A stretch of DNA of 64,000 nt from an uncultured Chloroflexota bacterium (GCA_903822495.1 CAIJPD010000043.1:46-64045), one strand, 5' to 3'. Numbered from the stretch's first letter, positions 9,723 to 50,902 are shown. The notes: generated from the sequence alone by a model not told the origin. Numbers and translations are program-made.

Positions 9723-9746
9723 GCCTGGACCCCGGAGGGCGGCGAG

Positions 9747-13851: not shown

Positions 13852-14039
13852 GGCCCGAGCATACCCGAACGCGGAGCGAGCCAGCCGGGCTCGACCAGGC
13901 CGCGATTCCGGCTCGGACGGCCCGAGTTCCTGGTCCGGCGGACGTGCAGATTGGATGCGTCTGGCGACCCCGGCGCCGTCGTAGACTGGGGACCAACGCG
14001 GCGTCCCCGCAGGTGCGTGACGCTATGGAGGAGTTCCGG

Positions 14040-14939: not shown

Positions 14940-14976
14940 GCACCCCGGTCCCGTCCAGGGCCCGCAAGGCGACGCC

Positions 14977-19216: not shown

Positions 19217-19356
19217 GAAGAGACCTCCTGGGCGGATCGAACCTGCTGCTGGCGGCCGGGCCGGGCCCGGCGCCTCGTTGCGCGTAGTGTCGCCCATCCC
19301 CCGCCACTCCGCCAGCGCGACTCATCGAGGCGGGCCGCCCACCAGCATGACGCTCG

Positions 19357-19737: not shown

Positions 19738-19800
19738 GGGACGCGCTCCTCTCTGCTGCAGGCCCCGGTGAAGAACCCCGGCCGATGATCGCCGTCGCGG

Positions 19801-19834
19801 AGAACACGAAGCCGGGCGCCAATGGCGCCCGGCT
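19801..19834 (-). terminator. Intrinsic terminator closing the NRPS/PKS operon
   Basis: Inverted repeat AGCCGGGCGCCA-A-TGGCGCCCGGCT (19810-19834), followed on the minus strand by TCGTGTTCT. Confidence 0.65.
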
Positions 19835-19885
19835 CCTGGTATCGCGCTACGCAGGTGCTGTCATCAGCACCGATGGGAACGTCGG

Positions 19886-20434
19886 TCAGAAGGGACCGTA
19901 GATGTAGTTCTCGGCGGCGTCGGGGTCCTCGCTGAACCAGAACGCCGCGCTGACCGCGATGACCTCCTCGCGACTGAGGAAGCCGTCGCCGTCCGTGTCG
20001 AACTTGGCGAAGTTGCCGGCCACGTCAACGTTCTTGTAGCCGTATGCCGCGATTCCGGCGTCGTACTCCCGGAGGGAGACCTTGCCGTCGTTGTCCGTGT
20101 CGAGGACGTCGACCAGGGCGCTGATGTACTTCTCGAGGGGGAACGCGCCGCCGCCGGCGCCCGCGGCGTCGTCGAGCGACGTCTGCCAGGCCGTCCATTC
20201 AGACGCGCTCACCCGTCCGTCGCGGCTGGTGTCGGCATGCTCGCGGATCTGGTTCCAGAGGGCGGTGGTCTCCGAGTCGAGCTTGGCCTTGCCGGCGGCG
20301 TCGATGGCCCCGGCCGCTGCCAGGCTGTCGGAGAAGCGGAGGTAGTCGGCGTGATCGATGAATCCATCTCCGTCGACGTCGTAGGCATCGAACAGGTGAG
20401 CGACCTTGCGGGCTCGAAACTCCGAGAGTGCCAT
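19886..20434 (-). CDS. EF-hand calcium-binding protein (calerythrin/SCP-like)
   Basis: Four loops: DVDGDGFIDHAD, DTSRDGRVSASE, DTDNDGKVSLRE and DTDGDGFLSREE. C-terminal YIYGPF; GGGAG RBS. Confidence 0.9.
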   Translation of the reverse strand: MALSEFRARKVAHLFDAYDVDGDGFIDHADYLRFSDSLAAAGAIDAAGKAKLDSETTALWNQIREHADTSRDGRVSASEWTAWQTSLDDAAGAGGGAFPLEKYISALVDVLDTDNDGKVSLREYDAGIAAYGYKNVDVAGNFAKFDTDGDGFLSREEVIAVSAAFWFSEDPDAAENYIYGPF

Positions 20435-20510
20435 GAGGTCTCCCTGCGGTGCGGCGATACTGACGAGTCGCCAATGGCCGCAGTGTATCCGGAACGCCCG
20501 GTGACCCTGA

Positions 20511-21308
20511 TCAACCGGCCGCAAGCGTCATGTCAACGCCGTCCACCGACGACGGCTTGCCGGGTCCCTCCCAGCGAACCACGCGCCAGCCCGAGACCAC
20601 CGCGCCACGCACGGCGACCGCCGCGTGGTAGCCGCGGTCCGGCCGGAACGCCACGCACCACCAGCGGCCCTGTCCCTCGGGCGCACGCATGGCCAGCAAC
20701 TCGGCGGCGCCGGACGGATCGAGTCGGACGTCGAAGGCGTCGAGGGGCAGCTGGAGGCCCACCCCGATCGCCTTGACGACCGCCTCCTTGCGCGTCCACG
20801 CCGCCAGGAAACCGTCCAGGCGGTCCCCAGCGCACAGGCTCGCGAGCTGGTCCTGCTCGGCTGCGGAGAGCACCCGCCTCGCCAAGGCATCCAGGTCCGG
20901 GATCGGCCGGCGGAGCTCGATGTCCACGCCCACGTCGCCCGCGGCTGCGACGCCCACCAGCGCGAGCTCGCCACCGTGGGCGAGGTTGAAGGACGGAGGC
21001 ACGGGCGACAGGCCTTCCGCCAGGAACGGCTTGCCCTGGGGACCCGACTCGAATGCCAGCGCCTCGAGCGGGATGCCGGTGTAGCGCGAAAGGATGTCGC
21101 GGAGGGCGGCGTGGGCCACGATGTGGCGCCTCCGGTCTGCCTCGAAGGCGAACCGATTCGCGGCCGCCAGCTCGGTCGCATCGAGCAGGCCGGCCAGGCC
21201 GGCCACCTGGTCATCGGGCAGGTCGAGCGCGACCAGCCAGGCGTGCAGCTGGGTGTGGACCGGCGAAGCGCTGGACGAAGGGGTGGCGGGTGCCCGGTCT
21301 GGCGTCAC
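20511..21308 (-). CDS. Sfp-type 4'-phosphopantetheinyl transferase
   Basis: GPQGKP, FNLAH, VGVDIE and WTRKEAVVKAIG. Confidence 0.94.
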   Translation of the reverse strand: MTPDRAPATPSSSASPVHTQLHAWLVALDLPDDQVAGLAGLLDATELAAANRFAFEADRRRHIVAHAALRDILSRYTGIPLEALAFESGPQGKPFLAEGLSPVPPSFNLAHGGELALVGVAAAGDVGVDIELRRPIPDLDALARRVLSAAEQDQLASLCAGDRLDGFLAAWTRKEAVVKAIGVGLQLPLDAFDVRLDPSGAAELLAMRAPEGQGRWWCVAFRPDRGYHAAVAVRGAVVSGWRVVRWEGPGKPSSVDGVDMTLAAG

Positions 21309-22078
21309 GGCCCGCCGGCAGTCAGCCAGGGCGCGAGGTCACGCGCGATGGACGAGATCAGGAACGGCCGTGCTGACCGGACGAACAGGTGGTCGCCGGG
21401 GACCATCCGGCAGACAAACCGGCCGGTCGAGTGCGATCGCCAGGCCTCCAGTTCGGCGGGCAGCACCGTGGGGTCGTCGGTCCCGCCGAACGTTGAGATC
21501 GGGCACGCGAGCGGAGCCCCGGCCGCAAACGTGTACGTCTCCAGGATAGTCAGGTCGGCCCGCAGAGCCGGCAGGAGGAGGGCCCGGAGCTCGGCGTCGG
21601 CGGCGATCTCCGGGGGAATGGACCCGTAGCGGCGCTGGACGGCCGCAAGCAGCGCGAGGTCGGGCAGCCGATGCAGCTCGTCGCCGGCCGCGCGATGGTC
21701 GGGCGCGGGTGCGGCACCCGCGAACAGGTGGATCGGCATCGGGCCGCCCACCTCGCGCAGGGCCCGGACGAGCTCGAACGCGACGAGTGCCCCCATGCTG
21801 TGGCCATACACGGCAAATGGGCGGTCCAGGTAGGGGAGCAGCCGCGGCAGCAGGTTCGCCACGAGGTCGGCCATGCTCGTCACCGGTGCCTCGCGGAGGC
21901 GTCCCTCGCGGCCCGGCAGCGCCACGAGCCCCGCCTCGAGGCCCGCCGGGAGGTCGGTCAGCCAGGAGCGGTAGGCCGATGGGCCGCCGCCGGCGTGCGG
22001 GATCAGCACCAGTCGGCAACGGGGGTGCGGGTCGAGCCGCGGGCGAAGGACCCACGGACCCGGCAGCGAGTCGCTCAC
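21305..22078 (-). CDS. Standalone (type II-like) thioesterase
   Basis: PHAGG, LPGRE, GHSMG and PGDHLF. Confidence 0.94.
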   Translation of the reverse strand: MSDSLPGPWVLRPRLDPHPRCRLVLIPHAGGGPSAYRSWLTDLPAGLEAGLVALPGREGRLREAPVTSMADLVANLLPRLLPYLDRPFAVYGHSMGALVAFELVRALREVGGPMPIHLFAGAAPAPDHRAAGDELHRLPDLALLAAVQRRYGSIPPEIAADAELRALLLPALRADLTILETYTFAAGAPLACPISTFGGTDDPTVLPAELEAWRSHSTGRFVCRMVPGDHLFVRSARPFLISSIARDLAPWLTAGGP

Positions 22079-25000
22079 TCGGACGATGGTTCGGTGGCGC
22101 CGGCGGCACGGCTCTCCCCCACCGCGCGGGTCTCATGCGCGGAGAGCAGCCCCGCGACCGTCCGCCGCGCGAACACCACGTTGGCCAGGCCGTTGATCGT
22201 CGGATCCTCGAACATCGCCGCCAGCGAGACGTCCGTCTCCAGCACCTTGCGCAGGCGCGACACGACCTGGGTCGCCAGCAGCGAGTGGCCGCCGAGGTCG
22301 TAGAAGTTGTCGTAGACGCCGATGGGTTCGATCCCCAGCATCTCCTGCCAGACGGCGGCGATCGCCTCCTCCGTGGGATTGCGTGGCGCCACGTAGGAGC
22401 GGGCCAGGGCGGGCCGCGCCTTGGCCTCGGGCGGGGCCTCCTCCCGTGGCCCTCGGACGGTCGCCAGCTGGACCCAGGTCCGGTAGCGCGCCTGGAGGTC
22501 CGTCGCGGAGATGGCCACCTGCGGGGCGTGGACGCCGAACAATCGCCCGAAGCAGGCCAGGCCCTCCTCGCGCGTGATCGCCGTGGGCATGATCCGCTCG
22601 ACGAGGTTGTCGCGGATCAGGGTCATGATCCGTTCGTCGAGGGTCCACTCGAGGCGCCACGAGTCCCAGCTCTGGACCTGCCAGTCCCGGCCCGCCCGGC
22701 GGCCGCTCCACTGGGCAAACGTGGCCATGAACGCGCTGGCCGCCCCGAACGACACGTACCCGACGCCCCCGAGGACCGACCCCAGAGAGCCCAGCGCGAG
22801 CCGCAGGTCCAGGTCCCGGTCCGCGGTGACGCTGTCGATCGCCAGCAGCCCGTGGGCCACAGCCACCAGGTTGCGCTCGCATTCCGCGGCGCCGCTGTCC
22901 GTGATGGTGTTGATGCGGCCCGCCGAGGACCCCGCGGCCGCATGAATGACGCCCCGGAGCGGGCCGTGCCTCCGTTCCGCCGCCTGGATCGCGGAGGCGA
23001 TCGAGGCGGGCTGGTCCAGGCCGCATCCGACCACCTCCAGGGCCACGCCATGGTCCATGAGGACCTGGGCAGCCCGGACCCTGAGGCTCACGATGTGTTG
23101 AGGATCGTTCTCGGCGAGCCAGCGATCCCAGCGATCCCGGGGCGGCATGCTCGCGTCCTCGATGAAGAGGAGGGGCGTTCGCCAGGTGTCGGCGATGTGT
23201 TCCGCGAGGGCGAGGCCGATCCCGACCAGCCCACCCGACACGAGCAGGAGGCCACCCTCCCGGATTGGCGCCGGGGGCGCGGCCTCGACCCGGATCGGCT
23301 CGTACGTCTGGACCCACCGGTGCGGGCCACGGAACGCGACGACCATGTCGTGGTCGACCACCGCGAGCTCCGCTACGAGGGATCCCACGAGCACCTCGGG
23401 CCGGGGCATGGCCGCCGGGTCCAGGTCGATCAGGCGGCAGGAGACGTTGTGATACTCCTGCTGGATCACCTTCGCCTGGCCGACCAGCGTCCCGGGCTCG
23501 GGCCGCAACGGCTCCGCGCCCGTGATGTCGTGGAGCCCCGCCGTGAGCGACGTGATGGTGATGGGCATGGTGATGTTGTGGCGACCCAGCGCACGCACGA
23601 GGTGGAGGACGGGATAGAACGAGCGCGCCTGAAAGGCGCGGAACGAGGCGATGTCCGGGGCCTGGTCCGGCGCCACCTCCACCCCGAGCGTCCAGCCCGC
23701 GATGACATGATCCGGCACCAGTCCCGAAGCCAGCAGGTCGCCGACCAGCGCGTTGTAGCCGGCCGGCGCCGCCGGATCCAGCGTCCAGGACCGGTCACCA
23801 TCCCTGTGGAACGCGGCCCCCACGGCGACGCGAACCACGGCGTCCCCCGCCTCCGCGAGTCGCGTGGCCACGGCATCGACGACTGGATCGTCGGCCAGCA
23901 CCAGCCAGGTCCGCGGCGGAACCGCCGTCCCCGGGGTGGCTGGGACCGGCGGGAGGATTCGCCGCCAGGACGGCACCGAGAACCAGTCCGCGATGTCCGG
24001 CCGCTTGCGCCCGGCGATGGCGCCGGGCAGGTCACCGGCGCCGAGGACCCCGTCGCGGTCGCGCGCGCCCGGGTCGGCGGTATCACCCGGTGACACCCAG
24101 TGGCGCTCGCGCTGGAACGGGTACGTCGGCAGCGGTACTCGCCGGCCCCCAGCCCGGCCGTCCGCGGCGACGACGCTGATGGCCGCGCCGGCCGTCCACA
24201 GCCGCGCCGCGGCCTCGCGGAGCTGCTCCAGCTCACCCGGCCCGCGATCGGTGGCCCCCATCGCCGCGACGGCCAGGGATTCGCGGCGGTGCTGGCGGAC
24301 GAACGTCCCGAGGGCGCGCCCGGGGCCTACCTCCAGAAAGACGGCGTCGGGCTCGGCTCGAAGCACGGTCTCGATCCCCGGGCCGAAATGCACCGGCGCC
24401 CGGAGCTGGCGGCCCCAGTACGCCGGATCGATCGCCGCTTCGTCCTGCAGCCAATCGCCGGTCAGGTTGGAGATGACACGCACGGCTGGCAGGTGGCGGG
24501 GCACGGCCGCCACGGCGGCGCTGAACGGGGCAACCGCACCGTCCATGAGCGCCGAGTGGAACGCGTGCGACGTGCGCAGGGGTCGATTGCCCACGCCATC
24601 GGCGTCGAGCCTGGCCCGCAGCGCGTCGATCGCCATCGCAGGGCCTGACACCACGCACAGGTCCGGGGCATTGAGCGCGGCGACGGTCAGCGAGGGCGCC
24701 AGGTCCGACTCCAGCTGGGCGGCCGGGAGGGCGACGGAGAGCATCGAGCCGGGAGGCTGCGACTGCATGAGCCGCCCGCGCTCCACCACCAGCCGCAACG
24801 CGTCGTCCGCGCTGAACACGCCGGCGACGCACGCCGCGACCAGCTCCCCCACGCTGTGGCCCAGCAGCACATCCGGGCGGAGGCCCCAGGCCTCCAGCTG
24901 GCGGGTGAGCGCCAGCTCGATGGCGAAGAGCACGGGCTGCGTCAGCCTGGTCTGGGCCAGCGCCTCGCCGGCAGCCACGGCATCCTCGCCGGTAGCGAAG

Positions 25001-26825
25001 AGCAGTCGGGGCACGTCGACGCCGACCAGGCGGCGAAGCTGGTCGAGCCGGAGATCCAGCTCCTCGCGGAAGACCGGCAGGCTGGCGTGAAGCTCCCGGC
25101 CCATGCCCACCGCCTGGGCACCCTGGCCTGGGAACAGGAACACCACTGGCCGGCGGCCATGCGTGGCGCCCTCGAAGGGCATCGACGGCCCCTCACCCCG
25201 AAGGATCGCGGCCGCCTCCGCCGTGGTGGCCGCACGGAGCGCGAGTCGTTCGCCCAAGCCGGCTCGACCGGCCCACAGCGTGTGCGCCACGTCGTCGATC
25301 GACAGGTCGGGGCGTTCGGCGAGGTGGGCGCCCAGCCGCTCGCGGGCGGACGTGAGCGCGTCCTGGGTCCGGGCCGACAGCACCAGCGTGCGCCGGGGCG
25401 CCTGGGCCTGGGCCTGGGCCGAGGACACGGCGGGGCCTGCGGTCCGAGGTGCCTCCTCGATCACCACGTGCGCGTTGGTGCCGCCGATGCCCAGCGATGA
25501 GACGCCCGCGCGGCGCGGTGTGGCGCCGGCCGGCCACGGCTCGAGTCGCGTGACGACGCGGAACGGGCTGGTCGCGAAGTCGATCCGCGGGTTGAGCGTG
25601 CTGACGTTGATCGTGGGCGGGATCTCGCGATGCTGGAGCGCGAGAATGGCCTTGATGAGTCCGGCGGCGCCCGCGGCGGTGTTGAGGTGTCCGATGTTGG
25701 GCTTGAGAGAGCCCAACGCGCAGAAGCCGACATCCGGGGTGCCCGTGCGGAAGGCGCGCGTGAGCGCCTCCACTTCGATGGGGTCGCCGAGGGGGGTGCC
25801 CGTGCCGTGGGCTTCGACGAAGCCGATGTCCCGCGGCGATACACCCGCTGCGGCCAGCGCCTGGGCCACGACGGCGGCCTGGCCGTCGACGCTGGGCGCG
25901 GTGAAGCCGACCTTGAGCGACCCGTCGTTGTTCACGGCCGTGCCCTTGATCACCGCCCGGACGGTATCGCCGTCCCTGATGGCATCATCGAGCCGCTTGA
26001 GGACGACCAGCCCGCAGCCACTACCGAACACCGTCCCCCGGGCGTCGGCGTCGAATGCACGGCAGTGGCCGTCGGGCGAGAGGATCGAACCCTCTTCGTA
26101 CCGATACCCGGCCAGGTGCGGGACGATCACCGACGACCCTCCGGCCAGTGCCATGTCGCAATCGCCGGCGAGCAGGGCCTGGCGCGCGAGGTGGACTGCG
26201 ACCAGCGACGTGGAGCACGCGGTCTGGACGTTGATGCTGGGGCCGGTGAGGTTCAGCTTGTAGGAGACCTGCGTCGCGGCGTAGTCCTTGTCGCCGTTCA
26301 GCAGCAGGGCGAGCTCGCCCGCGGACCGCACGACCCCGCGGTTGGTGAACAGGTTGTGGATCGCATAGCCGTTGAGGCCCACGCCCGCATAGATCCCGAT
26401 CGCGCCCGGGTAGCGGCCCGGGTCGGTGCCGGCGTCCTCCAGTGCCTGCCAGCCGCACTCGAGCAGCAGGCGGCGCTGCGGATCCATCAGGCGGGCGTCG
26501 GCCGGGCTGATGTCGAAGAAGGCGGCGTCGAAGCGGTCGAAGTCGTCCAGGACCGGGGCTGCACGAACGTAGGCGGGATCGGCGAGATCGTCCGGGTCCA
26601 CGCCGGCATCGAGCAGCTCCTGCTCGGACAGGCTCCGAATTGACTCCACGCCGGCCCGGAGGTTCGCCCAGAACGCGTCGACATCGGGCGCACCCGGGAA
26701 CCGCCCGGCCATGCCGATCACGGCGATGTCGAGTTCGTCGGAAGCCTCGACCCGCGCCCGATCGCCTGCGCCGTTGTCCATCGCCTGGTGCTCCTGCTCT
26801 TCGCGCTGGTGGCCCTCGCCCGACA

Positions 26826-26829
<4 letters not shown>
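22075..26829 (-). CDS. Type I PKS: KS-AT(malonyl)-KR(probably inactive)-ACP
   Basis: KS DKDY...VQTACSTS, HGTGT, NIGH; AT GHSVG and HAFH; KR GGLVGIG with GYVSFGAAS (catalytic Tyr absent); ACP LGGHSL. Confidence 0.92.
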
Positions 26830-32766
<5,937 letters not shown>

Positions 32767-32774
<8 letters not shown>

Positions 32775-35700: not shown

Positions 35701-37614
35701 CTCCACGGCCACAGTCGCGGGCTGTGCCCAGGCCGTCTCGACGAGCAGGTCCGGCTGGCCCGGGGCCGGATCGAGGATGGATCGCAGCGGGTGGCCGAGG
35801 ATGGGGTCGAGGACCAGCGCGCAACGATCGATCGCGGCCCGGTAGGCCGGCCAGGCCGCATCGAGGTCGCGACCCATCCGGGCCCACGCGGATCCCTGCC
35901 CCGTGAACAGGAAGCCGATCCGTGGTCGTGCCCCGGGTGCCACGTGGCCGCGGGACATCCCTGCCGGCCGGCCGCCGCCCAGGGCCGCGTCCAGTCGAGT
36001 CGCCGCCTCCATGCCACCAGCGGCAAGCACCGCGAGCCGGTGCTCGAACGCGGCGCGGCCATTCTGGGCTGTCGCGCACGCGGCTGGCCACGGGAGCGGC
36101 GGCTGGGCCCGGAGGCGGCGCGCCGTCGCCGTCGCCAGCGCATCCAGTGCCGCCGGTGTCCGGGCCGACAGCACGAGGAGTCCGGGGGCGCCATCGTCGG
36201 CCGGGAGCGGTCCGGAGTCGGGCCCGGGGTCGGGCGCCTGCTCCAGGATGACGTGGGCGTTCGTCCCGCTGAAGCCGAAGCCGCTCACGCCGGCGCGCCG
36301 CGGCCCCTCGCTGGCCGGCCACGAACGCTGGGCGGTCGGGACCGCGAGCGCCAGCTCGCTCCACGGGACGTGCGGGTTTGGGTCGTTGAGGTGCAGGTGA
36401 GCCGGGACCTCGCCGTGGTGGAGTGCCAGCACGGTCTTGATGAGCGCCGCCATGCCGGCCGCGGCCTCCAGGTGTCCCACGTTCGTCTTCACCGACCCCA
36501 CCAGGAGCGGCTCGCCGGCCGCGCGGCCCTGCCCATAGACCGCGTCCAGGGCACCCAGCTCGATCGGGTCGCCAAGCTGCGTGCCGGTCCCGTGGGCCTC
36601 CACGAACTGCACCTCGTGGGGCCGGACGCGGGCCCCGGCCAGGGCCTGGCGCATCACGGCCTGCTGCGCGGGTCCGCTCGGCACGGTCAGCCCGCCGCTG
36701 GCGCCATCCTGGTTCACGGCCGAACCACGGATCAGGGCCCAGACGCGGTCGCCCGCCGCAAGCGCGTCGTCGAATCGCTTCAGCACCAGGATTCCGCAGC
36801 CCTCGCCCCGCCCGTACCCGTCGGCCAACCGGTCGAACGTCTTGCAGCGCCCATCGGGCGCCAGGAAGCCCGCTCGCGAGAAGCTGATGCTGACTTCGGG
36901 CGAGAGGATCAGGTTCACGCCCCCGGCCAGCGCGGCGTCGCACTCGCCCCGGCGCAGAGCGCCGACCGCGAGATGGGTGGCGACCAGCGATGACGAGCAC
37001 GCCGTATCCACGGCCAGCGCGGGGCCGGTGAGCCCGAGCGTGTAGGCCAGCCGTCCGGCCGCGACGTTGAGCGCGCTCCCGGAGCCGGCATAGGCGTCGA
37101 TGGCGGCCGGGTCGGCCATCAGCAGCTTCGCGTATTCGAACCCGCTGATGCCGATGAACACGCCCGTGCGGCTGCCGAACAGCGAGGCGGGCGAGATGCC
37201 CGCATGCTCCAGTGCCTCCCAACCCACTTCCAGGAGGAGGCGCTGCTGCGGGTCCAGGCTGGGGGCCTCGCGCGGCGAGATGCCGAAGAACGCCGGGTCA
37301 TAGGCGTCGACCCGCTCGAGGAAGGCCCCGCGGCGCGTCACGATCCGGCCGGCGGCCGCAGGATCGGGATCGTACAGGGCGCCGGCGTCCCAGCGATCCC
37401 GCGGCACCTCGCTGGTGGCGTCGACCCCATCCCGCAGGAGGCGCCAGAAGGCGTCGGGGTCGTCAGCACCGCCGGGCAGCCGGCAGCCGATGCCGACGAC
37501 GGCGATCGGCATGAAATGCTCCCGCTCGTGAACGTCGAGCTCGGCCCGGAGGGCGCGGAGCTCCTGGTACGCGCCGGCGAGCAGCTCCTGCATGGAGGGG
37601 AGTGTCCCGGTCAC
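32767..37614 (-). CDS. Type I PKS: KS-AT-KR(A-type)-ACP
   Basis: KS DTACSSS; AT GHSLG and RAFH; KR GAFGGLG with ATWGSLGQAHYAAAN and no LDD; ACP LGMDSL. Confidence 0.93.
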
Positions 37615-40600: not shown

Positions 40601-43202
40601 CGCGGGCCCAGGCCCGGCCCACCGCCTCGGCGAGGACCCGCCCGTCCCGCCGGTTCCGCCGGAGGGACGGCAGCCATGCCGCCGGCCCGTCGTCGGACAG
40701 GCGCCCCAGTCCCAGGAGCACCGGATGCGGCCCAATCTCCACATACACCGCGGAGCCCAACTCCCGCAGGGTCCTCATGCCGTCGGCGAAGCGCACCGTC
40801 CGTCGGACATGGCGGACCCAGTAGTCCGGCGTCGCGAGATCCTCGTCCGCGATCTGGCCGGTCACGTTGGACACGATCGGGATCCGCGGGCGGGCGTACT
40901 GGACGCCCGCGGCAACGTCGGCGAAGGCCGCCAACATGGGCTCCACCAGCGGCGAGTGGGCGGCGATGGGGACGCGCAGCACGGTCGTGCGAACGCCCTC
41001 CGCGGCGAGGACGGCGGCGACGGCCTCCACGGCCGCCACCTCGCCCGAGATCACGAGGCTGTCCGGGCCGTTGACGGCGGCGATGGCCACGCGATCGTCG
41101 AGGTCGCCGATCGCCCGCGTCACCCGGCCCACGGCGGCCCGCACCGCGATCATCCGACCGGCAACGGGCAGGCCGTCCATGAGCCTTCCCCGCGCGGCCA
41201 CCATCCTGGCGGCCGCCTCCAGGTCGAAGACGCCGGCCAGCCAGGCGGCCGCGTACTCGCCGACGCTGTGGCCCAGGACCGCGACGGGCGAGACGCCCCA
41301 GCTCCGCCAGAGCGCCGCCAGGGCGGCCTCGACCGCGAAGAGCGCCGGCTGCGCCCAGGTCATGGTTCCCACCGGCGAGTTCGGGCCCTCGCCCCCGAAC
41401 AGGACGTCGAGGAGGCTGCGCCCGTCGACCGGGGGCACGGCGGCGGAGCATCGGTCGATGACCTCGCGCGCCACTGGCCACGACTCGTAGACGCCCCGCC
41501 CCATCCCCGCGTGCTCGGCGCCCTGGCCGGTGAACAGGAACGCGACCGGCGGCCGGACACCGCGCGGCGCGACGGCCGGCAGCTCCGCGTCCTCGGCCCC
41601 GGACGCGACCGCGTCGAGCGCGGCTGCCGCCTCGGCGCTTCGGGACGCCGCGATGCTCACTCGGTGCGGCTGCACGGTGCGGCCCACGTGCAGGGTGGCG
41701 GCCACGTCCGCCAGGGGAGCATCCCCGTGAATGGCCAGCCAGCGTGCGTGCCGGCGGGCAAGGGCGCCGAGCCCCGCTTCCGTGGCGGCGGACAGCGTGA
41801 GCACGTGGTCCTCGCCCGGCCGGGCCGACGGCAGCTCGAACTGCGGAGCCGGGGCCTCCTCGAGGATCACGTGCGCGTTGGTCCCTCCGATGCCGAAGGC
41901 GCTGACGCCCGCGCGCCGGGGCGCCCCGAGGTCCGGCCATGGCGCAAGCGTCGCGGCCACCGTGAAGCCACCCGCGGCCAGGTCCAGCTCCGGGTTCGGC
42001 GTGGCGAAGTGCAGGCTGGGCGGGATTTGGCCGTGGTGGAGCGCGAGTGCCGTCTTGATCAGGCCGGCGATGCCGGCCGCCGTGTCCAGGTGGCCGATGT
42101 TCGTCTTGACGGCACCGATGCGGCGCTCCCGCGCCGGTCCATAGGCCTGGACGAGGGCCGCCACCTCGATCGGGTCGCCCAGCGGTGTCGCCGTACCGTG
42201 GGCCTCGATGTAGCCGACGGTGTCCGGCTCGATGCCGGCGACGGCCAGCGCCTCCCGGATCACGGCCGCCTGGCCGACCACGCTCGGCGCGGTGAAGTCG
42301 ACCTTGGCGTTGCCGTCGTTGTTGATGGCGGACCCACGGATCACCGCGTAGATCGTGTCGCCGTCCGCGACGGCCTCGTCCAGTCTCCGGAGGAGGACGG
42401 CACCGGCGCCACTGCCGAACACGGTCCCGCTGGCGGCCGCGTCGAACGTCCGGGTGTGGCCGTCGGCCGACATGAACATTCCGTCCTCGTGCAGGTAGCC
42501 GGCCCGGTTCGGGAGCCGGATCGTGACCCCGCCCGCGAGGGCCGTGTCGCACGAGCCATCCAGGAGGCCCTGACATGCGAGATGGACCGCGACCAGCGAC
42601 GTGGAGCACGCGGCCTGGACGTTGACCGCCGGCCCACGCAAGTCGAGTCGATACGCGGTCCGGGTCGCCAGGAAGTCCTTGTCGTTGGTGATGAACAGCC
42701 GCCAGGCTCCAACGTCGGATCGCAGGGCGAGGTTGGGGTGGAGGTGATCAAGCAGGTACAGGTTCAGGCCGGACCCGGCGTAGACACCGACGGGACCGGC
42801 CGCCGATCCGGGCACACGGCCGGCGTGCTCGAAGGCCTCCCAGGCGACCTCCAGGAACAGGCGCTGTTGCGGGTCCAGCAGCTGCGCCTCGCGGGGGGTG
42901 ATGCCGAAGAAGCCCGCGTCGAACCTCGTCACGTCGTCCAGCGACCCCGACGCACGCACATAGCGAGGGTTCGCCAGCTCGTGCGGGGCGACACCGGCCG
43001 CGATCAGCGTCGCCTCGTCGAGGGTCACGACGGATTCGACGCCATCCGCGAGGTTCCGCCAGAACGAGTCCAGGTCCGGCGCCCCGGGAAATCGACAGGC
43101 CATGCCGACGATCGCGATCGCGCCCGGGTCGCCCCGCTCGACCCACGCGGCATCAATCGCACCGGTTCGGCCGTCCTCCGGACGAGGCATCGCGTCGTTC
43201 AC
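37611..43202 (-). CDS. Type I PKS: KS(post-NRPS type)-AT-DH-KR(B-type)-ACP
   Basis: KS NDKDF...VQAACSTS; AT GHSVG and IAAH; DH HRLEGTVVVA and HPGLIDSCFQ; KR GGLGEIG, VLDE, YAAAN; ACP LGLESL. Confidence 0.93.
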   Translation of the reverse strand: MNDAMPRPEDGRTGAIDAAWVERGDPGAIAIVGMACRFPGAPDLDSFWRNLADGVESVVTLDEATLIAAGVAPHELANPRYVRASGSLDDVTRFDAGFFGITPREAQLLDPQQRLFLEVAWEAFEHAGRVPGSAAGPVGVYAGSGLNLYLLDHLHPNLALRSDVGAWRLFITNDKDFLATRTAYRLDLRGPAVNVQAACSTSLVAVHLACQGLLDGSCDTALAGGVTIRLPNRAGYLHEDGMFMSADGHTRTFDAAASGTVFGSGAGAVLLRRLDEAVADGDTIYAVIRGSAINNDGNAKVDFTAPSVVGQAAVIREALAVAGIEPDTVGYIEAHGTATPLGDPIEVAALVQAYGPARERRIGAVKTNIGHLDTAAGIAGLIKTALALHHGQIPPSLHFATPNPELDLAAGGFTVAATLAPWPDLGAPRRAGVSAFGIGGTNAHVILEEAPAPQFELPSARPGEDHVLTLSAATEAGLGALARRHARWLAIHGDAPLADVAATLHVGRTVQPHRVSIAASRSAEAAAALDAVASGAEDAELPAVAPRGVRPPVAFLFTGQGAEHAGMGRGVYESWPVAREVIDRCSAAVPPVDGRSLLDVLFGGEGPNSPVGTMTWAQPALFAVEAALAALWRSWGVSPVAVLGHSVGEYAAAWLAGVFDLEAAARMVAARGRLMDGLPVAGRMIAVRAAVGRVTRAIGDLDDRVAIAAVNGPDSLVISGEVAAVEAVAAVLAAEGVRTTVLRVPIAAHSPLVEPMLAAFADVAAGVQYARPRIPIVSNVTGQIADEDLATPDYWVRHVRRTVRFADGMRTLRELGSAVYVEIGPHPVLLGLGRLSDDGPAAWLPSLRRNRRDGRVLAEAVGRAWARGVEIDWTAIDGRRRPRLALPTYPFQRERHWIEAPPGPPNARLAAAAPAAWPGRRMDLPFAVDVRFQAVLAPDSPAHLADHRLEGTVVVAAATHLAWGIQALADRNVTATSPVILEDVACPRALVFTDPTPRTAQLVIDGAGERLVRVASRRANAAVDDPWATHLEARLGASPADPRPSEAPAPEPLEIVRARCPERMDGDAFYATLGRVAYQAGPSFRWIDALWRGDREALGELKRPAPSAALDNDLLIHPGLIDSCFQVLAGGHRFEADPNAADGHFVPFRIARLTFLGTPGQLPLVCHARLRERQADRLVGDITLRDAQGRILLEIEGFEARRVSLDALARAEAGTDRLSYRVAWQDATPAVASPLSSRANQDWLVLADGQGVGQALARRLRERGERVDVVFAGAGSPAGSRVVDPLDQPAVGALVAGATAGEGRQLRVIHCWGLDTAEAGAAAAMCAGALHVVQALVAAPGSPTRSAPHLVLVTRGAQAAAPEDTIAAPSQATLWGFGRTVSLEHPELGVVLADLDAVSSGVDPDVDARRLLALLDDAAAEPQVALRGERARVPRLHRAGSPAAVRPARVTQGSTAVVTGGLGEIGLAVASRLSAAGLGAVVLVGRSAPRPAALEAIERLRADGCRVEVALADVADRAGLHSALAKVTRELPPVRVVVHAAGVLDEAMLIHDNAARIERVMAPKVSGLENLLLAASAWDLDALVLFSSISGLLGAPGQGAYAAANACLDAVAAQRRAAGQPAISIAWGPWADIGLAARGSGGEAHAAWGIDRLEPAEALARFDDLLGGGDPQLAVAAVRWPAFMRQFGAGRRPPFFEDIVGVPDAPGERPAFRQALDGSPPAARRGMLAELAASQVAAVLGLAPGSPIDPRRRLFDLGLESLTALEVKSRLERHLGVPLRSTLVFDHPTVEALADALHAILSGSPDRVESADRARQADSAATAAAAGATASEAAAAEVEGLADDRLAALLAAELAELRARRGS

Positions 43203-46200
43203 GACGGCGAGCCTCCCTGGCGTCCCTTGCGCCGTGCCTCGAGTCGGGCCCCCGCGCTGGCCCGGCCCGCCGTCCGCAGGACCGCCCGGTCCGGCGCCGC
43301 CGCGGCGTGCCCCGCCGGGTCCCCGTCGCCGGCGTCCAGGTAGGCGGCGAGCGACTCGATGGTGGGATGCTCGAACAGGGCGGCGATGGGAATGCGCCGG
43401 CCCAGCCGCGTCTCGATCACGCCGCGGACCTGGACCAGCAGGAGCGAATGCCCCCCGAGCTCAAAGACGTTGTCCTTGAGCCCGACGCGTTCTACCCCGA
43501 GGATCTCGGCCCAGGTTGCGGCGAGGAAGGACGCCGTCGCAGACGCCGTGGCGGGGGCCGTGGACGCCGGGCCGGGCGCCCGGCCCGCCGGGCCGGTGGC
43601 ATTCGGCGGTACGGTGGGCGAGACCACGCGAGGATCGGGCAGCGATTGCCGATCCACCTTGCCGTGGGCCGTCAAGGGCAGGGCGTCGAGGAACGTCCAC
43701 GATGCCGGCACCATCGCCTCGGGCAGACGGCTCGCGACCACTCGTCGCAGCTCGGCCGCGGCCAGCGCCGTGCCCGCGCGAGCCACCACGTACGCCGCCA
43801 GCCGAGTGTCCCCCGGCCTGGCGGTGAACGCGGTCACGACGACCTCCGCCACGTCGGGATGGGCACGGACCGCAGCCTCCACCTCCGCGGGCTCGATGCG
43901 CACGCCGCGGACCTTGACCTGGTGGTCGGCCCGGCCATGGTGCTCCAGCGTCCCGTCCGCGCGCCAGCGGGCCAGGTCGCCTGTACGGTAGATGCGAGCG
44001 CCCGGCGCCATCGAGAACGGGTCGGGTCCGAACGCCACGGCGTCGAGGTCCGGACGGCCAAGGTAGCCGCGCGCGACCCCGGCCCCCCCGATCCAGAGCT
44101 CGCCCGTCACGCCGACCGGCACCGGGCGGCCGTCGTCATCCACCACATACACCCGGGTGTTGTCGATGGGGCGGCCGATGGAGATGGGTTCGTCGCGTTC
44201 CACTCGACCCATGGTGGACCAGATCGTCGTCTCGGTCGGTCCGTAGACGTTCCACAGGGTTCCCACCCGCTCGAGGAGCCGATCCGCCAGCTCTCGGTCC
44301 AGCGCCTCGCCGCCGCTCAGCGCGACCAGGCCAGGGTCGCCCCGCCAGCCGCTCTCGACCAGGAGCCTCCACGTGGCGGGGGTGGCCTGCACGATGGTCG
44401 CCCGAGAGCGTCGCAGAAGCGTGGCGAGGCGTTCCGCGTCGGCGGCGTCGGCCCGGCCCACGAGGACCACCCGCGCGCCGGACACCCAGGGCACCAGCAA
44501 CTCCAGGACCGCGATGTCGAAGGTGACTGGCGTCACCGCCGCGAGGCGGTCACCGGGACCCACGCCGAGGCGACGAGCCATCGCGGCGACCAGGTTCACC
44601 ACCGCCCGCTGGGTCACCTGCACGCCCTTGGGCTGCCCGGTCGATCCGGAGGTGTAGATCGCGTAGGCCAGCTGGTCGGCGGTGACCAATGGAGCCCGGA
44701 CGGGACCCGGCGCCGGACGGAGGGCCAGATCCGGTGCCCCGGACGGGACCCCGTGGCACAGGTCCCCCAGGTCGTCCAGCTCGTCCACCAGGATCACGCG
44801 GACGCCGTCCGGGGCGGCGATCCCCGCCGACGACCAGGTCGCGCGGTCCGATACGACCACGGTCGCTCCCGTGTCGGCCAGCAGCCAGCGAATCCGATCC
44901 GCGGGCCACCCCGGATCGAGGGGAAGCCAGGCCGCGCCGGCGCGAACGATCCCGAGGAGGGCGACCGCCAGGTCCGACGTGCGGCCCAGGAACAGTCCTG
45001 CCAGCGTGTCCGGACCGACCCCCTCGGCGACGAGCGCCCGGGCCACGGCGGCGGCGCGCGTCCACAGCTCGTCGTACGTCGCCTCCGTGCCGTCGACGTC
45101 GAGCGCGACCCGTTCCCCGTGTCGCTCGAAGGCTTCGCCGAGGATAGCGCGCAGCGTCGTCGGGTCAGGCAGCCGGACGTCCGTCGCGTTGACCCCGACG
45201 ACCAGCCGCGCCTGCTCCGCGTCATCGAGGAGGCGCAGGGCTCCCACCGGCGCGCCTGGCCGATCGACGATGTCCTCGAGGAGCACGGACCAGTGGCGGG
45301 CCAGCCGCGCCACTCGTTCAGCGCCAAACAGCGCGGTGTCGTACTTGATCCAGCCGACGATCGACCGTTGACCCTCCACCAGCTCGAGCGCAAGGTCGAA
45401 CTGACCCTCCTGCTGGGGCAGCGCGACGGGCTCAAGCAGCAGGTCCGCCCAGCGCGCGCCGGTGGACACTGGGCTCGGCGCCAGCAGCTCGGCGAGCGGA
45501 CTCCCGGGGCCATCCGCCAGGGGCTGGTGGAGTGAGAACAGGACGTCGAACAGCGGCGAACGGCTCACATCCCTTGGCAGGCGCAGTCGCTCGACCAGGT
45601 GCGCGAAGGGCAGGTCCTGGTGGGCGAGCGCTCCGTGGACCCGGTCGCGGACCCGCGCGAGATGCTCGACGAATGTCTGGTCTCCGCTGACGTCCGCGAG
45701 CACCGCGACCGGGTTGACCAGGTACCCCACCAGGCCGGCAGCGGCAGGCCGGGTTCGGCCCGACGTCAGGGCGCCAACGGCGAAGGCGTCCTGCCCCGCG
45801 TACCGGGCGAGCAGGACCTGGAAGGCGGCGAGGAGAAGCGTGTGCAGCGACACGCCCTGGTGGCGCGCGAGCCGCCGGAGCCGCTCGGTGATTGCGGCCG
45901 GCAGCTCAATCCGCTGCGAGGCCCCCGTGAACGCGCGAACTGGCGGCCGAGGCGCATCCGCCGGCAGGTCGAGCACCGGGGGCGGGACGGCGAGCGCCCG
46001 GGACCAGTAGTCCCAGTCACGTTCGGCGGCCGGTGCCCCCAGGCGATCCGCCTCCCCGCGAGCCCAGCCGAGGAAGGAGGGACCGGGGGCCGGCAGGGTC
46101 CGCCCGGCGTACAGGCGCTCCAGCTCCTCCATCATCAGCACCAGCGAGGCATAGTCGCCGGCGAGGTGGTGCATCACCAGGAGCAGGACCGCCCGGTCGG

Positions 46201-48643
46201 GTCCAACCTCCACGAGCCAGGCGCGCGCGATGGGGCCCCGCTCCAGGTCGAAGGGCCGACGGACCTCGGCAGCCAGCCGGGCAGCCAGCTCGGCCTCTCC
46301 CCAGGCCGCGCCGTCGACGACCGCGAAGGCGCCAGGGTCGACCGGACCCGGCACCTGCTGGGGGCGGCCCTGCTCGTCGAGGTACCGCATCCGGAGTGCG
46401 TCGTGGCGGGCGAGGAGCGCCAGGAACGCCGCCCGCAACCCATCCGGCGACGGTGCGGGCAGCATCCGGACCGCCCCGGCGAGATGGTAGGCGTCGGTCT
46501 CGGGGGCCAGGCTCTGGAGGAACCAGAGCGCGGCCTGTCCGTGTGTGAGCGGGCCGGCCGCGTCGTCCAGGGCGGTCGCTGACGCCACGTCGCCGGCCGC
46601 CGGGCGCGCCACAACCTCCGGCCCGGTTCCGGCGCCGGCCAGGGCGGCGGCGAACGCCTGGATCGATGGCGCCTCCCAGAACAGGGCCGCCGGCACCCGC
46701 CGTCCCAATGCCCCCTCGAGCTCGAATGCGACCCGCGTCAGGGCGAGAGAGTCGAGTCCGTAGGCGAAGAAGGGCCGGTCATCCTGCACCTCGTCCGTGT
46801 CCAGTCCGGCGGCGACCGCGATTCGATTCCGCAGCCACCGGGCGACCTCCGGTGCGCCCGCGGCCGCGCCCAGGGCGGGCGATTCGCTGGTGGCCACGGG
46901 CACCGGCGCCCGCCAGTCCGCGATGACCGCCAGGCCGCCCTCGGCCAGGGCAGTGCGCGTCGTGCTGCGGCGCAGCTTGCCGCTCGACGTCCTCGGCAAC
47001 GTCCCGGGGCGCAGCAGCACGAGGCGCTCCAGCGACACCTCGTGGTCCGCGGCGACGGCCGCCCGCACGGCCTCCGCGATGGCGTCGACCGGCGTGGAGC
47101 CGACGACGTGGCGATCCACCTCCGCGACAAGCACCAGCCGCTCGCCGGACGGCTCGCCGGCCGCGCCCCCCACCGCGAACGCGGTGCTCGAGCCTGGCCG
47201 AATCGCCGGGTGCGAACCCTCGGCAGATGCCTCGATGTCCTGCGGGTACAGGTTCCGTCCCCTGATGATGATCAGGTCCTTGAGGCGTCCCGTGATGTAC
47301 AACTCACCGTCGTGCAGGAACCCCAGGTCCCCGGTGCGCAGGAACGTCCGCGTGGGGTGTCCTGCCAGCGTGGCGCCGAACGTGGCCCGCGTCTCGTCCG
47401 GCTGCCCCCAGTACCCCTGTGCGACGCTGGGCCCGGCGACCCAGACCTCGCCAACGGCCCCCGGAGCGCGGCCCACGCCGCTGTCGGGGTCGACGACCTC
47501 CACGAACGTGCCGGGGACGGGCCGCCCGCAGCTCACCAGGGGCACCGTCGATTCGGACGACGGCGCCGCGACGCCACGACCCTCGCGGAGAGCCTCCCGA
47601 TCCACGTCGAGCACCCGCGCACCCGAGCCGCGCACGCTGCCCGTGACGATGAGCGTCGTCTCGGCCATTCCGTAGCACACGTCGAAGGCGTCCGGGCGGA
47701 AGCCGTGCGGCCCGAATGTCCGCGCGAATCGCTCCAACGTCTCCGCGCGGACCGGCTCGGCGCCGTTGTAGGCGACCGTCCAGCAGCTGAGGTCCAACGC
47801 CGCGCGTTGCTCCGGGGTCACCTGGCGCAGGCACAGCTCGTAGGCGAAATTGGGTGCCCCGCTGGTTTGGGCCCGGTAGCGCGAGATGGCGCTCAGCCAT
47901 CGAAACGGCTCCTGGAGGAAGGCGACCGGCGCCATGAACACGCTCAGCGACCCCTGGTAGAGGGGTTGGATCGTGTCTCCGATGAGGCCCGTGTCGTGGT
48001 AGCGCGGCAGCCAGCTGACGACCGTGGAGTCGGCCGAATGGCCGAAGGTTGCCGCGATCTGGCGCTGGTTGGCGAGGACATTGGCGTGGCTGACCATGAC
48101 GCCGCGCGGAGTGCCGGTGGACCCCGACGTGAATTGGAGGAAGGCGAGGTCGTGAGCGGCGATCGCGGGGGGTCGCCACTCCCCCGCCTCGGCCGAGCCC
48201 ATCACGGTCGTGTCGATCAGGCCGACGCCCCCGAGGGAGGTTGACGATGCGCTACCGCCGAGCTTTGCGAGGATCGAGGCGGTGGCGAGGGCGAAACGCG
48301 GGGTGGCCGCGGCCACAATCGCGGCAAACCGGGGGTCCGGCTTGTTCAGCTTGGGCGGGTAGACCGGGACCGCCACCACGCCGGCATACAGGCAGCCAAA
48401 GAACGCCGCGATGAAGTCCAGGCCGGCGGGATACAGGAGGAGCGCCCGCTCGCCCGGCAGGCTCTCCCGCTGGAGCCGCGCCGCGATCGCCCGCGCCTGG
48501 CGGTCCAGCTCTCCGTAGCTGATGGAGGCGGCCTCCTCCACGCCATCCGCCAGGAAGATATAGGCGGTCCGGTCCGGATCTCGTGCAGCCCGCCAGCGCA
48601 GGAGCTCGGTGAGGTTCGGGGCGTCCGGTGACATGGTCTGCAT
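43199..48643 (-). CDS. Lipo-initiating NRPS: FAAL-ACP-C-A(Gly)-PCP
   Basis: FAAL FLQFTSGSTG, CYGMAE, RTSSGK; ACP YGLDSL; C domain HHLAGD; A domain YTSGSTG, YGPTETTIW, YRTGD; PCP LGGHSL. Confidence 0.94.
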   Translation of the reverse strand: MQTMSPDAPNLTELLRWRAARDPDRTAYIFLADGVEEAASISYGELDRQARAIAARLQRESLPGERALLLYPAGLDFIAAFFGCLYAGVVAVPVYPPKLNKPDPRFAAIVAAATPRFALATASILAKLGGSASSTSLGGVGLIDTTVMGSAEAGEWRPPAIAAHDLAFLQFTSGSTGTPRGVMVSHANVLANQRQIAATFGHSADSTVVSWLPRYHDTGLIGDTIQPLYQGSLSVFMAPVAFLQEPFRWLSAISRYRAQTSGAPNFAYELCLRQVTPEQRAALDLSCWTVAYNGAEPVRAETLERFARTFGPHGFRPDAFDVCYGMAETTLIVTGSVRGSGARVLDVDREALREGRGVAAPSSESTVPLVSCGRPVPGTFVEVVDPDSGVGRAPGAVGEVWVAGPSVAQGYWGQPDETRATFGATLAGHPTRTFLRTGDLGFLHDGELYITGRLKDLIIIRGRNLYPQDIEASAEGSHPAIRPGSSTAFAVGGAAGEPSGERLVLVAEVDRHVVGSTPVDAIAEAVRAAVAADHEVSLERLVLLRPGTLPRTSSGKLRRSTTRTALAEGGLAVIADWRAPVPVATSESPALGAAAGAPEVARWLRNRIAVAAGLDTDEVQDDRPFFAYGLDSLALTRVAFELEGALGRRVPAALFWEAPSIQAFAAALAGAGTGPEVVARPAAGDVASATALDDAAGPLTHGQAALWFLQSLAPETDAYHLAGAVRMLPAPSPDGLRAAFLALLARHDALRMRYLDEQGRPQQVPGPVDPGAFAVVDGAAWGEAELAARLAAEVRRPFDLERGPIARAWLVEVGPDRAVLLLVMHHLAGDYASLVLMMEELERLYAGRTLPAPGPSFLGWARGEADRLGAPAAERDWDYWSRALAVPPPVLDLPADAPRPPVRAFTGASQRIELPAAITERLRRLARHQGVSLHTLLLAAFQVLLARYAGQDAFAVGALTSGRTRPAAAGLVGYLVNPVAVLADVSGDQTFVEHLARVRDRVHGALAHQDLPFAHLVERLRLPRDVSRSPLFDVLFSLHQPLADGPGSPLAELLAPSPVSTGARWADLLLEPVALPQQEGQFDLALELVEGQRSIVGWIKYDTALFGAERVARLARHWSVLLEDIVDRPGAPVGALRLLDDAEQARLVVGVNATDVRLPDPTTLRAILGEAFERHGERVALDVDGTEATYDELWTRAAAVARALVAEGVGPDTLAGLFLGRTSDLAVALLGIVRAGAAWLPLDPGWPADRIRWLLADTGATVVVSDRATWSSAGIAAPDGVRVILVDELDDLGDLCHGVPSGAPDLALRPAPGPVRAPLVTADQLAYAIYTSGSTGQPKGVQVTQRAVVNLVAAMARRLGVGPGDRLAAVTPVTFDIAVLELLVPWVSGARVVLVGRADAADAERLATLLRRSRATIVQATPATWRLLVESGWRGDPGLVALSGGEALDRELADRLLERVGTLWNVYGPTETTIWSTMGRVERDEPISIGRPIDNTRVYVVDDDGRPVPVGVTGELWIGGAGVARGYLGRPDLDAVAFGPDPFSMAPGARIYRTGDLARWRADGTLEHHGRADHQVKVRGVRIEPAEVEAAVRAHPDVAEVVVTAFTARPGDTRLAAYVVARAGTALAAAELRRVVASRLPEAMVPASWTFLDALPLTAHGKVDRQSLPDPRVVSPTVPPNATGPAGRAPGPASTAPATASATASFLAATWAEILGVERVGLKDNVFELGGHSLLLVQVRGVIETRLGRRIPIAALFEHPTIESLAAYLDAGDGDPAGHAAAAPDRAVLRTAGRASAGARLEARRKGRQGGSPS

Positions 48644-50876: not shown

Positions 50877-50902
50877 TCGCGGTTCGGCGCCTCCGTGGGC
50901 CG

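Follow-up and report, generated by a model that had tools for sequence, protein, structure and literature searches.

INTRODUCTION

The clostyrylpyrone (csp) system of Clostridium roseum is a polyketide synthase (PKS) using acyltransferases (ATs) in trans. It is described as starting from an adenylation-acyl carrier protein (A-ACP) unit followed by two PKS modules, after which an atypical C-FkbH-ACP module, with a condensation (C) domain at its head, is proposed to insert D-glycerate via an ester bond. One last extension is made by CspE; the accessible part of the report describes no release domain, a fused 5/6 dilactone product, and a cyclisation that is proposed to be spontaneous (10.1101/2020.08.10.245514). 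We have analyzed a gene cluster lying at positions 19886 to 48643 of a 64,000-nucleotide stretch of DNA from an uncultured Chloroflexota bacterium (the window, in which all coordinates are counted). It appears to be a functional hybrid of nonribosomal peptide synthetase (NRPS) and type I PKS, with seven biosynthetic genes and an EF-hand gene, and from its domains we put at roughly 0.6 the probability that it makes an acyl-glycine-polyketide-glycerate lactone.

The loading of vioprolide was reportedly described by Auerbach et al. in 2018 as running from a FAAL-ACP (fatty acyl-AMP ligase and carrier) to a C-FkbH-PCP, where PCP is a peptidyl carrier protein. In the accessible text on this pathway, FkbH replaces the A domain and an ester-forming C domain links a fatty acid to glycerate (PMC8949500, PMC12397197). 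BurF, of the malleicyprol pathway, is described as ACP-C-NEX-T-Red, in which NEX is a remnant of FkbH; in vitro its C domain esterifies a beta-ketoacyl-ACP to a hydroxy acid held on T, and reduction triggers closure of a butenolide by a Knoevenagel reaction (PMC12304814, as far as that text was available). For foxicin, the available description has FoxBII end in ACP-C-FkbH, with a PCP-thioesterase (PCP-TE) on the next protein, FoxBIII (PMC5318452). Glycerate is also used in tetronate biosynthesis (RK-682, tetromadurin), by a FabH-like tetronate-forming enzyme together with a standalone FkbH and an ACP (PMC7489565).

The Chloroflexota cluster is an orphan hybrid put together from module types already known, and characterised systems offer precedents for its most unusual step. 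An earlier note on this DNA did not recognise the architecture as that of a characterised cluster; precedents do exist, since ester-forming C-FkbH-carrier units are known from vioprolide, foxicin and BurF, and csp follows the same logic. Hybrid clusters that are orphans and have a domain order of their own are very common.

RESULTS

An Operon of Eight Coupled Genes

Eight genes lie head-to-tail on the minus strand, forming a single tightly coupled operon. Domain calls are based on Pfam and NCBIfam profile scans of all eight, and every domain called has support from one or the other (KS, ketosynthase; DH, dehydratase; KR, ketoreductase).

Gene 1, 43199-48643, minus: 1814 aa, FAAL-ACP-C-A-PCP (Pfam, NCBIfam, motifs)
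Gene 2, 37611-43202, minus: 1863 aa, KS-AT-DH-KR-ACP (Pfam, alignments, motifs)
Gene 3, 32767-37614, minus: 1615 aa, KS-AT-KR-ACP (Pfam, motifs)
Gene 4, 26826-32774, minus: 1982 aa, KS-ACP-C-FkbH-ACP (Pfam, TIGR01686, motifs)
Gene 5, 22075-26829, minus: 1584 aa, KS-AT-KR(inactive)-ACP (Pfam, NCBIfam KR prefix, motifs)
Gene 6, 21305-22078, minus: 257 aa, discrete alpha/beta-hydrolase thioesterase with GHSMG, type II TE-like (PF00975, 127 bits)
Gene 7, 20511-21308, minus: 265 aa, Sfp-type 4'-phosphopantetheinyl transferase (PF01648 and PF22624)
Gene 8, 19886-20524, minus: 212 aa from a TTG, four-EF-hand calcium-binding protein (Pfam, four DxDxDG-type loops)
Terminator-like hairpin, 19790-19860, minus: 13-bp perfect stem, AUU loop and U-containing tail, 3' of the EF-hand gene

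Five of the junctions are GTGA overlaps, in which a GTG start sits on a TGA stop (at 43199, 37611, 26826, 22075 and 21305), and genes 3 and 4 are joined by the 8-bp overlap ATGACTAG at 32767-32774. Because of this last overlap we start gene 4 at the ATG at 32774, and not at the upstream TTG (32837) with which its longest open reading frame (ORF) begins. No frameshift or internal stop was found across the 29 kb of the cluster, and the G+C content at third codon positions (GC3) is 0.87-0.91 in all eight frames, as in host genes. All four EF-hand loops of gene 8 are canonical, and an alternative ATG start lies 30 codons into this gene. The hairpin that follows has a G+C-rich stem, and its 71-nt fold has a calculated energy of −38.5 kcal/mol (z −3.0); a simple terminator scan passed over it, its tail falling short of 5 T in 8.

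The catalytic residues expected of a hybrid NRPS/type I PKS are present, including the core motifs of the A domain. The Cys/His/His triad is kept in 4/4 KS domains, GHSxG in 3/3 AT domains, the carrier Ser in 7/7 carriers and HHxxxD in 2/2 C domains. The line departs from the cis-AT pattern of one AT for each PKS module, since module 4 has none. Junction reading and the profile scans agree with the gene set, the overlaps and the order of domains that the earlier note had given, as do the four EF-hand loops and the 13-bp hairpin with its EF-hand gene and terminator; its starred, inactive KR of gene 5 is likewise upheld by the loss of the catalytic Tyr and Asn described below.

Fatty Acid Loading and the Putative Glycine Module

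Gene 1 contains the following domains.

FAAL, 46928-48613, minus: aa ~11-572, fatty-acyl-AMP ligase models of NCBIfam, 435-485 bits
ACP, minus: Ser in YGLDS, aa ~631 (motif)
C, 45203-46552, minus: aa 698-1147, HHLAGD motif
A, 43658-45133, minus: aa 1171-1662 (Pfam, TIGR01733)
PCP, 43337-43525, minus: aa 1707-1769 (Pfam)

The 10-position specificity code of the A domain reads DILQLGVIWK, with the positions picked by a positional rule. A survey paper, in the part available, reports DILQLGMIWK for glycine-activating domains. The two codes differ at a single position, which makes glycine the likely substrate and fits the call made in the earlier note. Among A domains of solved structure, two-domain LgrA chains came first overall for gene 1, and the best matches over a single stretch were 5u89 and 8www.

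The Polyketide Modules

The DH of gene 2 carries HxxxGxxxxA, YQAGPSF and DSCFQ, its KR shows LDE and retains both Tyr and Asn, and its ACP has GLES. The AT has GHSVG and an unusual specificity motif, IAAH, in place of the usual HAFH or YASH, and the extender unit of module 2 may be unusual. In gene 3 the AT carries GHSLG and RAFH. The KR of gene 3 is without LDD and has a Trp ahead of the catalytic Tyr, with Tyr and Asn intact; we take this Trp to be typical of A-type KRs.

The AT of gene 5 has GHSVG and HAFH, the latter presumably a malonyl-type motif, and its carrier has GGHS. Its KR is degenerate: the catalytic Tyr is replaced by Phe and the Asn by Ser, there is an insertion, and the Pfam KR score is 65.5 bits, compared with 187-193 bits for the KRs of genes 2 and 3. 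Gene 5 ends after its ACP, with no fused TE.

The C-FkbH-ACP Module of Gene 4

Gene 4 combines a KS-ACP module with a second, FkbH-containing unit.

KS, 31548-32663, minus: Cys/His/His intact
KS-AT linker remnant and post-AT motif without an AT, minus (Pfam)
Carrier 1, 30465-30734, minus: GGDS
C, 29034-30341, minus: aa 812-1247, HHIMAD
NEX and FkbH, 27471-28997, minus: FkbH at aa 1452-1768, DADNT and SCR Cys (TIGR01686)
Carrier 2, 26970-27158, minus: aa 1873-1935, GGHS

A Pfam scan of gene 4 gave no Acyl_transf_1 match. The AT was cleanly lost, because the linker families and the post-AT motif persist without an acyltransferase between them. Module 4 also has no KR, DH or enoylreductase (ER).

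The FkbH domain matches TIGR01686 of NCBIfam with 267.3 bits, against a cut-off of 146.65; Pfam has no FkbH family. It is directly preceded by the HHxxxD-bearing C domain and directly followed by a carrier. We aligned it with FkbH domains from 79 other loci, giving 80 alignments. Six positions are invariant in 80/80 (D1457, D1459, T1461, D1558, C1720 and R1721), among them the aspartates of DxDxT and the cysteine of SCR, and gene 4 retains every one of the six. We take the latter to be the residue that carries the glyceryl group; a search of open papers for the catalytic Cys of FkbH found none. The absence of a Cys of the type 'GVCGE' was considered as a possible defect and rejected, since Val is found there in 16/80 alignments. 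Searched by sequence for a solved structure, the FkbH domain matched none except the uncharacterised HAD-like protein 3slr. For the C domain of gene 4, LCL-type C domains were the best solved structures, with SgcC5 weaker. The predicted function of gene 4 is the loading of a glyceryl unit supplied by 1,3-bisphosphoglycerate as well as the formation of an ester, not an amide, bond.

A Proposed Route to a Glycerate Lactone

From the domains we infer a route of nine steps. The FAAL would adenylate a fatty acid and load it onto the ACP of gene 1 (step 1), whereupon the first C domain would N-acylate glycine held on the PCP (step 2). Module 2 would add a C2 unit, reduce and dehydrate it, giving an enoyl diketide (step 3), and module 3 would add a further C2 unit and leave the hydroxyl, giving a hydroxy triketide (step 4). 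The KS-ACP of gene 4 would then add C2 to form a beta-keto tetraketide on its first carrier, with a neighbouring AT or FabD providing malonyl in trans (step 5). FkbH would dephosphorylate 1,3-bisphosphoglycerate and place the glyceryl group on the second carrier of gene 4 (step 6), and the second C domain would esterify the beta-ketoacyl chain to a glycerate hydroxyl (step 7). The KS of gene 5 would take over the acyl-glyceryl thioester and add one malonyl unit (step 8), which should remain a ketone given the dead KR of that gene. The doubly beta-keto intermediate would finally cyclise to a five-membered lactone by Knoevenagel- or Michael-type chemistry, with release by closure of a pyrone or tetronate ring or via the discrete TE (step 9). 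In the predicted product, a butenolide or fused dilactone head group would bear an N-acyl-aminoalkenyl side chain.

By its domains, the line leaves the ketide ahead of the glycerate module unreduced, makes a single extension beyond that module, likewise unreduced, and is without a fused release domain. The product is probably a butenolide or pyrone-type lactone rather than a linear lipid, going by the analogy with the described systems. The earlier note had proposed a lipid of acyl-glycine, two or three ketides (an enoyl, then a hydroxy), glycerate and a final extension. This order of units, with a third ketide ahead of glycerate, is reasonable, following as it does the collinear domains; a plain linear lipid is unlikely, because the ketides on either side of glycerate are unreduced, module 4 having no KR and module 5 a dead one.

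Relatives of the C-FkbH Block

We searched the C-FkbH-carrier part of gene 4 against 5.8 billion proteins, restricted to lengths of 1090-3469 aa, and 8000 candidates were scored. Its own protein aside, the best of the 6050 matches are 37-42% identical, and no orthologous cluster was found in this search. Thirty of the 120 proteins listed align with the block end to end over more than 900 residues, and the block sits at the N terminus, in the middle or near the C terminus of NRPS/PKS proteins. Species-representative genomes contain at least 593 C-FkbH loci, all at no more than 45% identity to gene 4. The exact architecture of the cluster, as read from its domains, is unmatched in the collections searched, with 42% identity for the best match to gene 4. 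The C-FkbH module itself is common.

Of the 79 loci kept, five have a KS or other PKS domains directly ahead of C-FkbH (L017, L021, L042, L047 and L082) and three have a KS-AT directly behind FkbH (L033, L082 and L084). L082 is the only one with PKS domains on both sides, many of the loci being cut by contig ends. This locus, in a metagenome-assembled genome of Ca. Angelobacter (Acidobacteriota), reads FAAL / acyl-CoA dehydrogenase-like / AT-less KS-ACP / C-FkbH-ACP / KS-AT-ACP-C, and has the same core of AT-less KS-ACP, C-FkbH-ACP and KS-AT-ACP as genes 4 and 5. It differs in having no glycine, DH or KR modules, in ending in a C domain, and in adjoining a LuxR-type regulator. The regulator, which has an autoinducer-binding domain, is followed by an IS66 transposase (L082:17283-19589, after the core); these neighbours hint at a signalling role, or at mobility, of the cassette in L082. 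Two metagenome proteins, P0017 and P0019, read KS-AT-ACP-C-FkbH-ACP-C and again differ in being without glycine, DH or KR modules. The identity of L082 and of P0017/P0019 to the C-FkbH block is 34-42%.

A KS tree was built from 16 rows by a quick search, with no outgroup and with support from SH-aLRT, a likelihood-ratio test, only. It contains two clades, each with an SH-aLRT of 100. The first holds KS3, KS4 and the KS domains upstream of C-FkbH in L082 and L042; the second holds KS2, KS5, the post-FkbH KS domains of L033, L082 and L084, and first KS domains after FAAL loading. The upstream and downstream KS domains of L082 and P0017/P0019 split into the same two clades as KS4 and KS5. In the cluster, KS2 is preceded by a PCP and KS5 by the carrier of FkbH. 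KS5 would take a glyceryl-bound chain, because it groups with the KS domains that directly follow FkbH carriers, and the tree agrees with a chain passed on collinearly to KS5 by the FkbH carrier.

The Cluster Interrupts a Host Operon

The cluster is flanked by genes for a 2-oxoacid dehydrogenase.

E3 lipoamide dehydrogenase, 50903-52342, minus: upstream flank, host operon (Pfam)
E1alpha, 49776 to ~50870, minus: upstream flank, 2-oxoacid dehydrogenase (Pfam)
E1beta, 48793-49776, minus: upstream flank, 2-oxoacid dehydrogenase (Pfam)
orfX, 19357-19737, minus: downstream flank, 126 aa, no Pfam family
E2 acyltransferase, 17864-19297, minus: downstream flank (Pfam)
Lipoyl synthase (LipA), 16742-17797, minus: downstream flank (Pfam)

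In a genome of the same genus (G001), the genes E3-E1alpha-E1beta-orfX-E2-LipA are contiguous and 68-98% identical to the six genes of the window (tblastn synteny), the contiguous E3, E1alpha and E1beta being 90-98% identical. By blastn, positions 19752-48786 of the window (29,035 bp) take the place of 341 bp between E1beta and orfX in G001. In six further genomes of the family (L091, L094, L096, L097, L098 and L099) E1beta is followed by E2 within 1.5 kb, with orfX between them in one of the six. By these comparisons the 29,035-bp block is an insertion, EF-hand gene included. The genes do run from 19886 to 48643, as previously noted; comparison with the sister genome moves the true limits of the block outward to 19752 and 48786.

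The orfX that lies between E1beta and E2 is 68% identical in G001 and, more weakly, 45-60% identical in three other genomes of the family (L093, L094 and L101). A listed ORF of 757 aa (49776-52049, minus) is an over-extension: only its last ~364 aa, the E1alpha, are conserved in relatives, and its upstream half overlaps the real E3 gene in another frame (GC3 0.94).

The G+C content of the island is 0.740, compared with 0.7168 ± 0.0085 for 447 other 29-kb windows, 0/447 of which reach as high a value; alone this lends the insertion weak support, because PKS genes tend to be G+C-rich anyway. We found neither direct repeats nor a tRNA at the two borders, and the island carries no integrase and no transposase. 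The only tRNA of the window, tRNA-Glu (CTC) at 1190-1266 (minus), is far from them. An assembly chimera was considered and rejected, as the two flanks each show synteny with G001 on a single contig and the exact gene 4 protein occurs on seven public contigs, which argues against an assembly artefact.

The assembly is of 3.61 Mb in 68 contigs and is 89.7% complete. Outside the island it has no further KS of type I and no further C, A or FkbH domain; the island is its sole thiotemplate cluster, and the one additional AT belongs to a fab-like locus on contig C42. Type I KS domains occur in 3/60 other genomes of the family. The FkbH part of gene 4 has a match in 0/40 genomes of relatives, with weak matches to the C domain or carrier only in G012 and G015. 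The island appears to have been acquired recently, by horizontal transfer, to judge from these comparisons.

Two more blocks of the window are not present in G001, and both carry genes for ATP-binding cassette (ABC) transporters: a solute-binding protein and permeases at 6327-10068, and, at 13913-16264, an SBP_bac_3 protein alongside a permease and a partial ATPase. Their presence suggests that gain or loss of cargo is frequent in the neighbourhood of the island.

The best named relatives of the lipoyl synthase, 76-77% identical, are annotated as Ca. Limnocylindrales or Chloroflexota. The size and G+C content of the assembly agree with figures for Ca. Limnocylindria in the available part of PMC10608941. 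Taken together, the sequence comparisons indicate that the host is probably a member of Ca. Limnocylindria, bearing out the previous suggestion of a poorly studied lineage. In a sister family of the same order (f2, genus g25) the genomes are only 1.0-1.4 Mb; a match to E1beta at E ≤ 1e-40 is absent in 9/10 of those searched, and the tenth, G031, matches at 48% identity.

DISCUSSION

Alternatives to the Lactone Route

Several points weigh against the formation of a lactone by the route proposed. The assignment of glycine, and the typing of the KRs and ATs, depend on motif rules, and the extender unit of gene 2 is uncertain because its IAAH motif is unusual. The chief weakness is module 4, whose missing AT makes the extension at this point an assumption, and the module could merely pass the chain on; neither the island nor the assembly, at 89.7% completeness, showed a trans-AT gene. 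The type of ring, whether butenolide, tetronate or pyrone, hinges on which glycerate hydroxyl is acylated. The KS tree is small, at 16 rows, without an outgroup and with SH-aLRT support only, and the likeness to Csp, VioA, FoxBII and BurF is one of published descriptions and not of aligned sequences. Finally, the cluster has a discrete TE that the clostyrylpyrone system does not, making hydrolytic release of a linear acid possible. In that case the product would be an acyl-glycine-polyketide-glycerate-acetate acid with no ring. The 257-aa thioesterase with its GHSMG motif is translationally coupled to gene 5, and Pfam scans of all eight genes revealed no dedicated cyclase, both as such a release would have it. 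Standalone PF00975 proteins of this size are, however, usually editing type II TEs; moreover, the two beta-keto groups flanking the ester would be prone to cyclise, as in malleicyprol and the clostyrylpyrones. We regard linear release as unlikely.

The glycerate ester might instead be channelled into a tetronate. Here the C domain would make a beta-ketoacyl-O-glyceryl ester, and either Dieckmann closure would release a 3-acyl-tetronate at gene 4, or the 3-OH of glycerate would be acylated and the free 4-OH would close a tetronic acid after the extension. If the Dieckmann variant applied, gene 5 would be unused, iterative or engaged in making a separate small product. A beta-ketoacyl-ACP and a glyceryl-ACP are indeed the substrates of tetronate formation as described (PMC7489565, and the accessible text of PMC12304814), and module 4 is without a KR. 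The island nevertheless has no FabH-like synthase and there is no extra condensing enzyme nearby, while gene 5 is coupled to its neighbours, intact apart from its KR, and has a KS that groups with post-FkbH KS domains. We hold this outcome to be rather improbable. More doubtful still is the view of a cluster in decay or without function, newly arrived in a small genome with an AT-less module and a dead KR. Loss of the AT of module 4 and inactivation of KR5 could be taken in that sense, as could the restriction of the cluster to this genome among the 40 relatives searched. Against this, the 29 kb are free of frameshifts and internal stops, GC3 is host-like, the overlap couplings are kept, and all other catalytic motifs are intact; an AT-less KS-ACP before C-FkbH recurs in L082, and the precedent chemistry needs unreduced ketides on both flanks. 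We consider decay very unlikely, and prefer the formation of a glycerate lactone by a working cluster.

A bolder proposal can be put forward tentatively, as possible and still short of probable: that the AT-less KS-ACP, the C-FkbH-ACP and the hybrid-type KS-AT-ACP together form a portable, cross-phylum 'glycerate-lactone warhead' cassette. Here it would have been grafted onto a lipo-glycine line, giving a previously unseen N-acyl-aminoalkenyl butenolide or fused furo-pyranone. On this view the trio would be shared by Chloroflexota (the island), Acidobacteriota (L082) and Clostridia (csp).

Significance

The island opens no long-standing question. Were it expressed, the assembly-line chemistry of Ca. 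Limnocylindria would come into view for the first time; this class of Chloroflexota is uncultured, has small genomes and rarely carries type I PKS genes. The island would also provide a second, independent internal C-FkbH-ACP module that places glycerate within a polyketide chain, and such a second case would help to generalise how these modules build lactone head groups. Should the cassette proposal be true, Ca. Limnocylindria would have in this product its first assigned assembly-line metabolite, possibly one that acts in signalling or on membranes and was gained by horizontal transfer. The insertion site, bounded by an island-free genome of the same genus, offers a tidy case of the acquisition of a 29-kb cluster into a housekeeping operon.

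Comparison with Known Systems

The comparisons below follow the described systems as they appear in the available parts of the reports cited in the Introduction. Vioprolide shares with the island a FAAL-primed line and an ester-forming C domain that acylates FkbH-loaded glycerate on a carrier. That pathway esterifies the fatty acid itself to glycerate at the very outset, ahead of its NRPS modules, whereas in the island the acyl donor would be a glycine-polyketide chain, the C-FkbH module is internal, and a PKS module comes next.

BurF resembles gene 4, as the latter's function is predicted, in that a PKS ACP supplies a beta-ketoacyl chain, which a C domain of LCL-like type with HHxxxD esterifies to a hydroxy-acyl unit on the next carrier, in the FkbH-derived NEX between C and T, and in the closure of a butenolide ring afterwards. 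It differs in that only the NEX remnant is present, BurJ and BurH load trigonic acid as the acceptor, and the aldehyde electrophile comes from a terminal reductase. In the island the FkbH is complete, the predicted acceptor is glycerate, and the electrophile would be a ketone from a further PKS module; no terminal thioester reductase follows the C-NEX-T segment, and its place is taken by a KS-AT-KR0-ACP module, with its dead KR. Foxicin has in common with the island a cis-AT PKS with ACP-C-FkbH and then a carrier, but there the carrier is on the PCP-TE protein, with no KS after it and no FAAL-glycine start in the description. The tetronate pathways are set apart by their enzymes, since 0/8 genes of the island are FabH-like and its FkbH is fused.

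By domain description the clostyrylpyrone PKS appears to be the closest known system. Like the island it has polyketide modules, an internal C-FkbH-ACP, a final extension on a separate protein, and no integrated release domain. As described, csp begins from an aromatic acid on an A-ACP, is trans-AT throughout, and has five modules with no NRPS amino-acid module. The island starts from a FAAL and glycine, has cis-ATs in 3/4 PKS modules, and brings a discrete TE and a phosphopantetheinyl transferase, and is not a trans-AT PKS with an aromatic A-ACP starter. Within these differing frames, genes 4 and 5 appear from their domains to reproduce the features on which csp chemistry is built: no reduction ahead of glycerate, an inactive KR beyond it, and no TE fused to the line.

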